From: Eledone cirrhosa
Taxonomy: Eukaryota
Length of the DNA: 64,000 nt
NCBI GenBank assembly: GCA_964016885.1
Contig: OZ024742.1
Span: 158,348,001 to 158,412,000 of the forward strand
Direction of reading: 5' to 3'
Shown piece by piece: positions 6,549 to 54,477 of the stretch (position 1 is the first letter of the stretch; each line of letters begins with the position of its first letter). The notes under the pieces were generated by a model, which saw nothing but the letters and a program-made list of their open reading frames with translations, ran no database searches and had not been told where the DNA came from. The position numbers and the translations under genes are program-made.

Positions 6549-7378
6549 ATAAATATATATATATATATTTATATATATATATATATATATATATATATAT
6601 ATATATATATATATATATATATATATATATATATATATATATATATTTATATAAATATATATATATATATATATATTTATATAAATATATATATATATAT
6701 ATTTATAGCGGCGATGAATTAGTTTTGCGAGGTTTTTTATATGAAATCGTGTGTCGAAACAGATATTGTTATATTTGGGGAGGGTCATATTTGCGTAATA
6801 TTGCCAGAATTAATAACAGAACACACTCACTGTTTGGTTGGTTTTCGCTTCTCTGACATCCTAAAGCCAAGCAGACGCACTGCCAACAACTTCCAGGCGT
6901 CTAACAATGGCATACCACCCTTGTATGGGCTCCGCAAAGACCACAAGACAGTCGACGACCCGACAACAGGACCACCAACAAGACCCGTATGCGGAGCTAA
7001 TATAGCTAGCAACTACAGGATCTCCTACTTCCTCTCAATGGTTATACGCCCCATAATCAAGATGTCCCCAGATGTATGTGAAAGTACAGAGGACTTCCTC
7101 AGCAGAATCAGTGAGTGCAACAAAAACAGGAGCCTATCCAACTGCATAATAGGCAGCATGGATGTGGTGTCACTGTACCCATCCATTAACATTGATTTTG
7201 CTGTGAAAAGATGTGTGGAGATGATCATTGAGAGTGAGGTGGAGTTCTGCGACGTCGACACAGACGAACTGGGCCTCCTACTTAGACTTACCTACGACAC
7301 TGACTACCTAGACAGCCATGACCTTAGATGTTTCTGCCCTAGTAGACCTATAAGAGGTAGAACCCCACCATAACCTCA

Positions 7379-8833
7379 ATGGCTAAAAAGACTCCCATAG
7401 GAAGGTGGATTGGGTGGACCAAAGCTATACGGACCCCCCAAAACACTGATCAGGTAAGAAAAATGGTCGCACATGCAATAGGGGCTAGTATAAAAACTAC
7501 CCTAAAGGGCCACATATTTAAGTTCAATGAGAAAATCTACACCCAAAATGAGGGAGCAGCCATCGGCGTCAGCATAGCTGGTGATGTTGCCAACCTTTTC
7601 ATGGTATGGTGGGAAAGGAGACTTAAAGATCTCCTCCTTAATGAAAGCTCCATAGACCTCATCATGTACTCTCGTTATGTAGACGATATCAATATAGTTA
7701 TAAGAACACCCCCACTAGAGAGCACTAACAAGTTTGATTTAGAACGTAGCACGATGGAAAGCATCCAGCAGATAGCTAATTCCATACACCAGAGTATAAC
7801 TGTAACTATAGACTTCCCTTCCAAACACCCTAACAATAGACTACCTGTATTAGACACAGAACTCTGGATTAACACTATAGACGAGAGAGCCCAAATTCTC
7901 CACTCACACTATGCTAAACCCATGGCCTCCAAATACCTGATACTCAAAAACTCAGCAATGTCCAGTAGTGCTAAGTTTAATATTCTGATCGCAGATTTGG
8001 TACGAGTGATGAAGAATGTGTCCAGCATGTGCGACCCAACAGAAATGGAAGGACACATCCAACACTTCATCAACCGCATGCAGTTCTCTGGCTACAACCA
8101 AAGAGACAGAGTCAGAGTATACGAAGGAGCCATGGAAAATTATAAGACCCTCATAGAACTGGACATGAAAGGAATTTGCCCACTATACAGGAGCAAATCA
8201 TGGAATAGCTTAGATAGGGCTAGACATAAGATAGGGAAGGCCACATCATGGTACGACAACCAGAGATATCAGAGTATCATGTTTGTGGACGCCACCCCTG
8301 GAGGGAAATTAGCTAACCAGTGTAGAAAGGCCCTGAGAAAGACCCACTTAAAAATAAAGGTGGTAGAAAAGCCAGGAACCACCATAAAATCCCTGATCAG
8401 CAAAACCTACCCTTTTAAGAAAACCCACTGTACCAATAGGAAATGTATCATATGTAAGGTGAACCCCCGGATAAACTGTAAAACTAGAAACGTAGTCTAT
8501 AGCATAAGATGTACAGAGGGTACTTGCAGAAACACGACAACAACATACATAGGTGAGACAGCTCGTAGCATAGGTGAAAGGATAGACCAACACTGGGGGG
8601 AACTAAAAGGACGAAAAAACGGGTCAGTACTATACGAACATGCTAGACAACAACATGACGGTAACATAGACAACATAGAAATTAGAATAATATCTAAACA
8701 TAGGAATGACCCAGCAGATAGGCAAATCAGAGAGGCCAGTGAAATAGAAATTAGAAGACCAAAGCTAAACAGAAAGAATGAGTGGAACAACAACAACACC
8801 CAAACAAACAACACTGACCTAAGAGAAGTATAA
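7379..8833 (+). pseudogene. PLE RT C-terminal half plus GIY-YIG (frameshifted from 6854-7373)
   Basis: YSRYVDD and YIGETAR motifs; nearly identical to 41434-42885. Confidence 0.88.
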
Positions 8834-9104
8834 ATAAATAAGTAAATTAAATTAAATAAATAAAATAAGATAAATAAATACATACACAAGCACATAAACA
8901 CACACTAGTCACCCAGCAGACACAACACTATACACACTAGTCACACATCACACATAACACAATACACACACGCAAACGCATGCGCAAAGAAGACAAAATA
9001 AAATAAGATAAACAAACAAGCAAATAAATAAATAAATATATAGACAGACTGAACAAAAAAAAATGGCGTAGACATACAACACAACAGGAGGAACAATGAA
9101 TATA

Positions 9105-9148
9105 ACACCACTGACGATGTTGCAGAGGTGCAACGAAAGATTTATGTA
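9105..9148 (+). ncRNA. Minimal hammerhead ribozyme (family B), weak stem I
   Basis: CA-CUGACGA-U-GUUGCA gagg UGCAAC-GAAA-GAUU-UA-UG. Confidence 0.7.
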
Positions 9149-50795: not shown

Positions 50796-50951
50796 ATATA
50801 TATATATATACATATATATATATATACATATATATATATATATATATATATATATATATACATATATATATATATATACATATATATTTATATATACACA
50901 TATATATATATATATATATATATATATATATATATATATATATATATATAC

Positions 50952-51365
50952 ATGGGTCTGAGACTTGGACACTGACCAAGAAACTCACTCAGATGGTGGA
51001 TGGGTACTACACGAGAATGCTGAGGATGGCTCTGAACATTAATCAGTATACACTGAGGATGAAAAACTCAGAGCTGTATGGGAGCATCCCAAAAGTCAGC
51101 TCAAAAGTGACACAGAGGAGACTGAGGTTGGCTGGACATGCTCACCGACATCCAGAGTTGACATTGCACTCAGTGCTCCTTTGAGAGCCCCTACATGGAC
51201 ACACTAGAAGAGGAAGACCAAGGTTAACATATGTTGATGCCCTAAGGACAGACACTGGTCTGTTGGAGATGCAGGATATGGCAGCGATAATGAGGGACAG
51301 AGACCGCTGGAGAGAACTCGTCCATGGATCTCTGGAATTTTACCCGCCTTAGATAGATAGATAGA
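50952..51365 (+). mobile_element. 5'-truncated RTE 3' fragment with (TAGA)n tail
   Basis: Matches 30984-31384 in reverse complement. Confidence 0.9.
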
Positions 51366-51701
51366 TATATATACATATATATATACATATATATATATAT
51401 ATATATATATATATATATATATATATATATAAATATATATATATATACATATATATATATATATATTTACATATATATATACATATATATATATTTATAT
51501 ATATACATATATATATACATATATATATATATACACATATATATATATATATATATATATATATGTATATATATATATATATATATATATATGTATATAT
51601 ATATATAAATGTATATATATATATGTATATATATATGTATATATATATATATATATGTATATATATATATATATATATATATATATATATGTATATATAT
51701 A

Positions 51702-54477
51702 TACACAGTTCAATCTTAAAGAGAGAGATGGAAAATAGGAGGGGAGAGATGTGAGGAGAGATTGGTGAATTAGTTAGAAGCCAAAGCGTAAAGGCATGTG
51801 CTCAATGTGCAATATGCAGTAGAAATCAGCTAGGTGGCTGAGTTCATGCAAAGGTTAGGTGCGCAGAGCTGGAAATATTCATTAGTTAAGCAAAACAAGG
51901 CCAAAAATTTCACAAGGAAGACATTATTAAAAGATTGTCAACATATTTAGTTTGATGTAAGGAATGTAGAGAATAATAATAATATCAATAATAACATCAT
52001 ACTTATGGTGAGGCAGACTATCATTGAATTTAACGGAGCACTCTGGAAAAGATAGAACAGACAACTTTGACATCACGATGGGCTCAAGTGACTCTGTGCA
52101 AATCACCGATTTAGTTGGAATTTACCTATTACATAACATCAGAGCCGAAATCAAACCCTTTCAAGGTGGAATATACAGGGACGACGCCCTATTTGCAGTC
52201 CACAATTGCACTAATCGGGGCATTAATTGGCTAAAAAAACTATTACATAGATTCTTTAAAAATAACGGTCTCTCTATCACCATCGAGCCGAATCATAAAG
52301 TAGTAAACTTCCTAGACGTCACCCTGGATCTCAACAATAACCTATATTACACTTAACCTATATTACACTTACCATAAACCAGGTGAAATACTCACATATA
52401 TTAGCCCACACTCTAACCACCCACCGGCAGTCATCAGAGCAGTAATCAAATCTATCTCATATAGGATCTCAATGCTATCAGCAAATGAGGAGATATTTAT
52501 AAACCATGCACAATATTATAATCAGGCTCTTTATGAATCTGGTTATTAACAATCAATTTATTACATACCTAAATGCCATAACACAGCAATTCACCATAAT
52601 AAACTTAACACTAGAACTAAAAATACCTTAGCATATAGCCAGATTCGCCGGAATTTTAGCAGTAACAGCACCTATACAGGGAAGTTTAATGGTGGCAGCT
52701 GCCTGCTCCCCACTCCAAGTAGCAAACTAAAAATCAACCCTAAATAGGAATGAGAAATGGGATGACAAATCCCCAGGTAATAATAACCCTAGGAAGGCCC
52801 CTACCAACTCCACTAGAACCCCTAGAAGGAATAGACCTAGAAATATCACCTGGCTTAACCCCCCCATTCTCATCTAATCTATCCACTAATATCCCTAAAC
52901 GCTTCTTCTCTATCCTATCTAAACATCCCCCCCCCCCAACCATAGATATTACAAACTCTTTAATAAAAATAACATTAAAATCTCATTCTCCACAACACCT
53001 AACGTAGCTAGCCACATCGCATTCAGTAACCATCATAAACTAAGACAGCATAACTCCCACACCGCGGTACCACCACCCCTATCAAATACACCACGCCACT
53101 ACACCAATAATTACTCTAGTAGCACACCTACCCCATCTAATCCTTCTAGCTCTGAGATACCGCTCAGGTTAAACTACCCTACTCCTACTAACCGCAGAAG
53201 CAACTGCAACTGCCGTTACCCTAATGCATGCCCATTAAATGGACACTACCTGACACCCAACATAGTCTATAGGTGCACGGTTAAAGCTGCTTCGAAGACC
53301 AGCTCTTATATCGGGTCTACCTCTAACCCGTTTAAAGTACGCTATAACGCGCACTCTTTTTCCTTCCGAGACCCTAGCAACAGATGTTCGACATCGCTAG
53401 CTAGGCTCATTAAAAACCTTAAATTAAGCAACGTTCAACACTCACTAAAATGGGATATCGTGGCTAGGGCCCAACCGTTCAATGGACGAGGAAAATCTTG
53501 TGATCTCTGTATTACAGAAGCATATTACATAATTATATCACGACTCTATCGATTAACGATAGAACGGAGGTAACTATTAGCTGTCAACATCGAAGGGCTA
53601 ATTCCTTCGCCAATAGAATATTTGACCCAACTTAGTCATCTAGCCCCATTTTTACTTGTAGCTAATAAGTTAAATAGCTATGACTAACTTAGATAATTAT
53701 AAGTTACCTCCTCTACATTGTCTCTCAATTAAAAAATTTAAAAATTAGCACTTAACTATAAACTACCCAAAATTTCTAACCTGTCGAGGAGTTACTTCCC
53801 CTGAAACCACCTTCTAATTAGTAAGGTAAATATGTCCTTTGGCAGCCATCTTGTTACCCATAGGCAGATCTCACAAAATGCAGCCTCGACAGATGAATAC
53901 TGCTTGATTATGGCTGACAACTTATGCAACCAAGGCACCATAGTGAAAAACCAATATATGGAACATTATATTATGTAACATTCTCTCATTATTTTAATTT
54001 ATATTCCTTTGAAGTTTCGATGAGGCGCTCTGTCTTTTAAATATGTTAATTATTTTCAACTGAACCAGATCAATAATGATATATAGTCATCTGATCCAGA
54101 AATATTATATGGAGTAGCGACACAATTGTAAACGGACATTATTATTATTATTCTAGGGCGGTGGATTAGCAGTATCGGTAGAGGGTCGGACGCCATGCTT
54201 TGAGGCATAGAGTTACGTCCCTTGCCATTCTGAGTTCAAATCCCGCCGACGTTAATTTGGCCTTTCATCCTCACGGGGTCGATGAAATAAAGTACCAGTA
54301 ATGCACTGGGTATTTGCTGGCCTTGTGCCAAAAGTAGAAACAATTATTATTATTATTATTATTAATATTATTATTATTATTCTCTACATTCCTTACATCA
54401 AACTAAAATATGTTGAAAATATTTTAATAATGACTTCCTTGTGACATTTGTGGTCTTCTTTTGCTTAACTAATGAAT
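51702..54477 (+). mobile_element. PLE family H3 (YRDD-type), degenerate, with inverted pLTR end (51702-51993)
   Basis: FDITMGSSDSVQITDLVG, GIYRDD, VNFLDVTLDL, then CNCRYPNACPLNG, YIGSTSNPFKVRY, CDLCITEA and CQHR to ~53635. Confidence 0.86.
54154..54345 (+). mobile_element. Full-length tRNA-derived SINE inserted in the (ATT)n of the H3 pLTR
   Basis: A-box-like TAGCAGTATCGG, B-box GAGTTCAAATCCC and (ATT)n tail. Absent from the paralogous pLTR at 38945-38985. Confidence 0.88.

Follow-up and report, generated by a model that had tools for sequence, protein, structure and literature searches.

The window analysed here, a stretch of 64,000 nucleotides (64 kb) from Eledone cirrhosa (contig OZ024742.1, positions 158,348,001 to 158,412,000), has a GC content of 32% and contains mobile elements nested within long (TA)n tracts. 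Eighteen Penelope-like element (PLE) or PLE-like insertions in the window were examined, detected by TA-masked self-BLAST and per-family alignments of the outward-reading ends (Table 1). In the two-armed insertions with both ends visible, two inverted arms are joined head to head; one arm stops at an upstream position, the short site, and the other carries an extra tail to a downstream position, the long site. This regularity suggests that the two arms probably arise by separate priming from the two DNA ends of a break in (TA)n.

In families A, B and H1 to H4, the translations show a reverse transcriptase (RT) followed by a YIGET, YIGAT or YIGST motif, and pseudo-long terminal repeats (pLTRs) in tandem or inverted arrangement are accompanied by a tail, as in endonuclease-bearing (EN+) PLEs. 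The open reading frames (ORFs) of these families are all broken or truncated, and H4 retains the endonuclease (EN) part alone. Families A and B combine RT, a CX2-5CxxC linker (read as CIDKCITC and CTNRKCIIC) and a GIY-YIG domain, and are called Neptune-type on these features rather than by tree-based clade placement; the linker before the EN is described as a Neptune feature in PMC8557442. The Pfam RVT_1 match is weak for A and B0, below the Pfam cut-off, and the top protein match of the family-B ORF in B0 is a predicted RT protein of Octopus vulgaris (68% identity). H1 to H4 carry the Hydra-clade motifs given in PMC8557442. RWRA (RWK-like) and DKTG (DKT) are present in the N-terminal RT region of H1, a region that H2 to H4 lack; the linker CxCX5C is found in H1, H2a and H3b; and around the conserved E/N, CxxC occurs in all four families and CxH in H1, H2a and H4. 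All four also sit in (TA)n, as Hydra elements do. H1 is a near-full-length Hydra-clade PLE whose arms differ at 21/1439 positions and whose junction has local duplications (15887–15964).

Hammerhead cores with a stem II were recognised in A, O and, as a variant core, H2 by a pattern scan that allowed an extra base before stem II, and in B only under looser inspection. The core in H1 lacks a clear stem, and the pattern scan found no core in H3 or H4. Rfam ribozyme scans gave no hammerhead match, their output being empty or swamped by TA-repeat microRNA matches. In X18, X39 and X55, neither an ORF nor a hammerhead (pattern scan, Rfam) was found, and self-BLAST did not match them clearly to any ORF-bearing family. 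Their assignment as PLE-derived non-autonomous elements is not supported; the trait they share is the geometry only, and they are not filed as PLEs.

A sequence-only reading of this DNA had listed nine insertions with one short and one long end. All nine were recovered, with ends within ~4 nt of those listed (TA microhomology blurs the exact base), and five further two-armed insertions were found (H1, X39, X55, X18 and A4). Both ends are visible in 14 of the 18 insertions, and they are unequal in 14/14; short/short and long/long pairs, which chance would be expected to produce, each number zero in the window. Against a null of two independent sites with p = 0.5, this gives p = 6e-5, although the short and long labels are relative within the pair for the single-copy H1, H4, X39, X55 and X18, and O2 is calibrated at its short end only. 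When the count is restricted to the eight insertions for which each of the two end classes is seen again in an independent insertion (A3, A4, B1, B2, H2a, H2b, H3a and H3b), the result is 8/8 unequal (p = 0.004). Of the remaining four, A2 and O1 are single-armed and short-ended, B0 is single-armed, and A1 is short-ended with its partner beyond the window. Hidden second arms were sought in seven other TA-flanked regions and none was found.

The tail length first given as about 55–180 nt is corrected to 49–179 nt, with one tail of only ~7 nt (X18). The tails of families A and B are A+C-rich (0.62–0.63). Of the six families first counted, A and B are not fully independent, since their short and long sites are homologous (81% over 77 nt). 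Short ends do adjoin TA, as had been proposed; long ends abut TA too.

At the short site, 2–4 alternating A/T bases are common to the site and the flank at nine family-level sites (A and B taken as one), the continuation past the site being taken from the long arms. The microhomology sum is 27 against 8.9 expected (p = 7e-6) with values curated by eye; the automatic junction caller returned 6 for B1R and 1 for H1R, H2aR and X18L, and the by-eye values were substituted in this main test. With the automatic values for H1 and H2 the result is p = 3e-4, and with automatic values in the six ORF- or hammerhead-backed families only, p = 0.01. This microhomology fits annealing of a primer, but it would fit an AT-specific cut motif too. 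The hammerhead cores lie 70–258 nt upstream of the short site, so hammerhead cleavage is not what makes the short end. In A2 (6500–6530), 26 nt flanked by two GCAAC copies are gone shortly upstream of the short end; this microhomology-bounded deletion leaves the end position unaffected.

The arm that reaches further 5' is the short-ended one in seven insertions and the long-ended one in six (13 of 14 resolved). The occurrence of both patterns points to two separate primings on RNA, since fold-back of one cDNA would make the long-ended arm contain the other. Variants are also shared between the arms of an insertion: the informative sites of H2 group by insertion in 3/3 cases, and in family A one single-nucleotide polymorphism and one indel join A3L with A3R; no variant groups by end class. 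Arm junctions show overlaps of 1–11 nt in six insertions (including 2 nt in X18) and filler in three, in a tally that omits H2a, H3b and H4 (the reference for one arm is missing), O2 and A1. A4 looks single-armed, but a long arm of 13 nt is present; it stops before reaching the short site and overlaps the short arm by ~6 nt at the junction, the pattern of classical twin priming. This micro-arm matches the family-A long end at 12/13 bases and directly adjoins the TA tract. The flanking tracts carry the same variant on the same strand on both sides, TACA at B2, H2a, H2b and H3a and TGTA at X55 (the right tract of H3b is too short for this reading); such matching variants indicate that the target was a pre-existing TA tract.

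The earlier suggestion that both DNA ends prime separately is supported by the seven-to-six split in arm reach, the shared variants, the 2–4-nt TA microhomology at short ends and the 13-nt long arm, and we regard two-ended priming as such as probable. A full version, with a double nick in (TA)n and two 3' ends priming at two internal sites on one RNA, is given slightly less than an even chance. The target in this version is the pre-existing TA tract marked by the flank variants. The EN would nick both strands and each would be extended, as happens in vitro for another PLE clade. One 3' end would prime at the upstream short site, where the observed 2–4 nt could help by AU pairing, and the other would prime at the long site, 49–179 nt (once ~7 nt) further downstream; from its sequence, the long site appears internal and non-polyadenylated. 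If one site on one RNA holds one primer, equal ends would be excluded. The downstream RT would usually pass the short site by strand displacement, leaving overlapping arms, and A4 would be a case in which it stopped early. Each RT would halt at a variable point, and a repair route would join the cDNA 3' ends head to head through the short overlaps or filler seen at the junctions. Priming on one RNA gives a natural reason for both the unequal ends and the shared variants.

Alternatively, two-ended priming could use two RNAs, or two pLTR-tail copies of one tandem transcript, with an asymmetric dimer assigning one subunit to each start site. Overlapping arms would then need no displacement. A dimer is predicted for the anole PLE protein (PMC11167929), tandem units are present in X39, X55 and X18, and 'dual priming' by two RNAs has been proposed for L1 (PMC2837659). 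The absence of equal-ended pairs among 14, on the other hand, is not naturally explained without added asymmetry, and because the arms group by insertion both RNAs must share one source. We consider this arrangement unlikely.

Marginally less likely still is a single priming followed by self-priming or fold-back, in which the EN resolves the product asymmetrically and leaves the tail on one side. Such a route has been suggested in print: self-priming, possibly on an antisense template, was deduced from junction palindromes in PMC3846280, and the tail is ascribed to EN-mediated resolution in PMC8557442. The short AT motif where short arms end might mark where the EN cuts instead of where a primer pairs. 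Fold-back on a cDNA predicts nesting of the other arm in the long-ended arm, which fails in 7/13 insertions. Also, a palindrome arm of at least 7 nt is present at only 2/13 junctions (H1 and H2b, both AT-rich repeats) with the others at background, and junction palindromes were rejected as a general feature on this count.

The sequence-only reading had one DNA end annealing at an internal AU-rich site and the other priming at the true 3' end of the transcript. Long ends do recur in position in H3 (2/2) and A (2/2), and within ~3 nt in H2; their microhomology is weak, as priming at a free RNA end would give, and a faint 3'-end product has been observed in vitro (PMC11167929). The dominant in vitro product, by contrast, is unaltered by a 3' extension of the RNA (PMC11167929). 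In the window, no poly(A) run is found at any of the 14 long ends and AATAAA or ATTAAA lies within the last 45 nt of 1/13 tails. The internal tandem units of X39, X55 and X18 run on past the long end, and the long ends of B1 and B2 are ~10 nt apart. Equating the long end with the RNA 3' end is therefore not supported by these data and we judge it improbable. The long end is most likely a second internal start site, to go by the sequence, although it may instead be a non-polyadenylated RNA end. Poly(A) and hammerhead cleavage were rejected as sources of the long end on the 0/14 poly(A) count and the positions of the cores.

Some further features of the tails and long ends were observed. Read from an ATG, the tails of A and B give similar peptides of 25–28 residues, with a stop at codon 26 in A; 8/14 differences between them fall at third positions (p = 0.06) and 5/13 changed codons are synonymous (p = 0.09). 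A search of the peptides against 1.84 billion representatives gave no matches, short BLAST against 120 homologs gave chance matches only, and a profile of the N-termini of 19 long homologs scored them no better than shuffles. The tail as the start of an ORF gained no support from these and was left unproven. By eye, both H3 tails stop 10–20 nt past a splice-acceptor-like pyrimidine run and AG (39225–39240, plus strand; 51715–51735, minus strand), and A, B and H3 have upstream GT motifs that resemble donors; together these would fit an unspliced template. Two ~25-nt pieces in a TA tract (44736–44768 and 44961–44993) match the H1 long end at 11068–11092. They may represent tiny insertions that were primed from the long site; alternatively, they may be a motif of the tract itself, in which case the exact long end of H1 is uncertain.

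An assembly or fold-back read artefact, which the sequence-only reading had named as a risk, or ascertainment by which any two unequal ends are named short and long, is very improbable: the region is repeat-dense with long TA tracts and the labels of five single-copy families are relative by definition, but ends are family-fixed at independent loci although left/right geometry is swapped and junctions differ in the copy pairs B1/B2, H2a/H2b and H3a/H3b, arms diverge by 0.3–7% in long comparisons (1/393 to 5/69 substitutions), the flank variants lack the mirror arrangement that a fold-back would produce, and the layout has been published from other species.

Several observations weigh against two-ended priming on one RNA with two fixed sites. 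The arms overlap on the template in 13/14 insertions, unlike in L1 twin priming and in the inverted long interspersed nuclear element (LINE) copy that serves as an internal control, so that either displacement or a second RNA must be assumed. Two RNAs transcribed from one source locus, or gene conversion at a later time, would account for the shared variants just as well, and informative substitutions were absent from B and H3. At the long site, microhomology does not exceed chance (7 against 4.0 expected, p = 0.14, at four sites with known continuation). The single-armed A2, O1 and B0 and the ~7-nt offset of X18 do not fit a fixed geometry, and the junction tally has its gap at H2a, H3b and H4. 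PMC11167929 reports no start-site difference between strands and no homology of the start sites to the cut DNA, and its available passages show neither exclusion nor annealing. Finally, the sequence evidence comes from the letters of a single 64-kb window.

Table 1. Insertions in the 64-kb window and the inverted LINE copy used as an internal control (S, short end; L, long end; + and -, strand).
Insertion	Position	Arms	Remarks
A1	1..2779	head-to-head arms, junction ~1508	Neptune-type; right arm short end ~2779-2783; left arm leaves window; arms differ 1/393
B0	3074..6017	-	single-armed family B; broken RT + GIY-YIG ORF; 3' end ~140 nt upstream of short site at 2-nt AT microhomology
A2	6311..6552	+	single-armed family-A pLTR; short end
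B1	6706..9368	long arm 6706-6853 (-), ~7-nt filler, ORF-bearing short arm 6861-9368 (+)	tail 59 nt
A3	10213..10665	long arm 10213-10435 (-), short arm 10437-10665 (+)	tail ~60 nt; hammerhead-like core at 10481
H1	11068..17426	ORF-bearing long arm (-), broken ORF ~15835 to 13420; short arm 15957-17426 (+)	tail ~130 nt
A4	17974..18172	short arm 17974-18165 (-); long-end micro-arm 18160-18172 (+), 13 nt	arms overlap ~6 nt
X18	18251(L)..19047(S)	inverted tandem units; no ORF/hammerhead found	ends differ by just ~7 nt
H2a	27540..30121	long arm 27540-27872 (-), ORF-bearing short arm to 30121 (+)	Hydra clade; tail ~82 nt
LINE copy	30458..30833	classical non-overlapping 5' inversion	internal control; ~6 nt absent between pieces on template copy 30984-34290
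O1	37349..37547	+	single-armed orphan family; short end; hammerhead-like core at 37446
H3a	37772..39258	short arm 37776-37990 (-), ORF-bearing long arm 37990-39258 (+)	tail 179 nt
X39	39351(S)..40415(L)	68-nt tail; no ORF/hammerhead found	tandem unit runs past long end; imperfect ~11-nt junction overlap
B2	40857..43246	ORF-bearing long arm 40857-43141 (-), short arm 43141-43246 (+)	tail 49 nt, ~10 nt less than B1
O2	44330..44705	short left, long right	88-nt tail; junction somewhere in 44478-44511
H4	45948..47776	long arm 45948-46183 (-), short-ended arm to 47776 (+)	Hydra-type endonuclease remnant; tail ~162 nt
H2b	48533..50795	ORF-bearing short arm 48533-50189 (-), long arm 50182-50795 (+)	~8-nt junction overlap; tail ~85 nt
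H3b	51702..54477	long arm 51702-51994 (-), ORF-bearing short arm to 54477 (+)	tail 170 nt
X55	55590(S)..57762(L)	inverted 548-bp tandem units; no ORF/hammerhead found	78-nt tail; internal units run past long end

Other repeats have been identified within and around these insertions. The 3' regions of H1 and H2 contain internal tandem repeats of ~113–155 bp (12473–13482 and 48682–48955), and a ~150–170-bp repeat, 88–95% identical and likely a short interspersed nuclear element, lies inside three Hydra-clade copies (38406–38558, 47386–47555 and 54178–54349). The ORF start of B0 (5850–6017) has an asparagine-rich stretch immediately at the TA tract; its best Octopus homolog likewise opens with TA-like residues, followed by a low-complexity N/S/G-rich stretch, and Asn-rich inserts have been described in rotifer PLEs (PMC3846280). 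A ~605-bp tandem array occupies 19113–25955 between TA tracts and is followed at 26144 on the plus strand by a well-formed hammerhead-like motif (stems I, II and III of 8, 4 and 8) that has no Rfam match; the array and motif are possibly retrozyme- or PLE-related. Further non-LTR (non-long terminal repeat) LINE copies are located in TA tracts at 30984–34290, 34777–37310, 43538–44215, 45084–45619 and 50952–51364. These copies have a Pfam RT, the first also has an endonuclease domain, and the only inverted LINE copy is the internal control.

A broader reading, which we advance tentatively as a possibility, is that head-to-head inversion could be the normal integration route of (TA)n-targeting PLEs, with one RNA copied twice, from two fixed internal starts, by the two ends of a double-strand cut, and the tail representing the distance between the two active sites along the RNA. 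If so, inverted pLTRs, one-sided tails and the missing poly(A) end would all follow from one mechanism. The unequal-ends rule holds in Neptune-type as well as Hydra families and whichever arm is the longer, which makes the question of tail and inversion directly testable. For annotation, a consensus 3' end in these families has to take both termini into account.

By comparison with other systems, the closest biochemical information is for Poseidon of Anolis carolinensis (PAc), whose protein, a predicted dimer, cuts and extends both strands in vitro, and whose tail is bounded by two internal RT starts (PMC11167929). The insertions described here resemble PAc in having a tail bounded by two apparently internal starts, in the cutting and extension of both strands that we propose and in an AT-rich target, and the A+C-rich tails of A and B resemble the AC-rich start region of PAc. 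On the other hand, PAc belongs to another clade and its starts are non-homologous to the cut DNA, whereas the short sites here have TA microhomology. Also, the scenario presented in PMC11167929 gives no assignment of one site to each DNA end, and the steps after priming are left unvalidated there.

The canonical layout of EN+ PLEs (Penelope/Poseidon, Neptune, Nematis and Naiad), with an inverted 5'-truncated copy and a tail at one end only, is already in print (PMC8557442, PMC3846280). Canonical tails are 30–40 bp and are called optional, while the tails here are 49–179 nt (one ~7) and occur on exactly one arm in 14/14 two-armed insertions. In PMC3846280, a 31-bp tail on one inverted pLTR is described and self-priming is favoured. 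The available passages of the two papers give no tally, and EN resolution or self-priming is proposed; the origin of the inverted pLTRs and one-sided tails is called unresolved in PMC8557442. H1 to H4 match the Hydra clade of PMC8557442 in diagnostic motifs and (TA)n insertion, but the Hydra section available is silent on end geometry and tail length, and the long arm of H1, which includes a long 3' region and measures 4.8 kb, is above the <3 kb typical of Hydra elements. No two-ended model appears in the passages available from PMC8969392, PMC4209133 and bioRxiv 10.64898/2026.07.22.740005. Our literature search found neither a one-short/one-long rule nor two-ended PLE priming, although subscription papers (Evgen'ev & Arkhipova 2005; Arkhipova 2006; Pyatkov 2004) may state a one-end rule.

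In L1 twin priming (PMC2837659), the second target end primes internally, giving an inverted piece and a microhomology junction, and A4 and the LINE copy at 30458–30833 are similar. In L1, however, one primer sits on the poly(A), the internal site varies and there is no overlap between the pieces, whereas in the insertions here both sites are family-fixed, poly(A) is absent and the arms overlap in 13/14. Classical L1-type twin priming was rejected on these grounds, although the proposed route works like twin priming. The geometry itself is thus largely in print and would not surprise a PLE specialist. What is added here is the tally, the long Hydra-clade tails (up to ~180 nt), the micro-arm, the short-site microhomology with TA and a mechanism open to testing, likely twin priming on one RNA; a specialist might be surprised by how long the tails are, by the regularity and by the 13-nt micro-arm.

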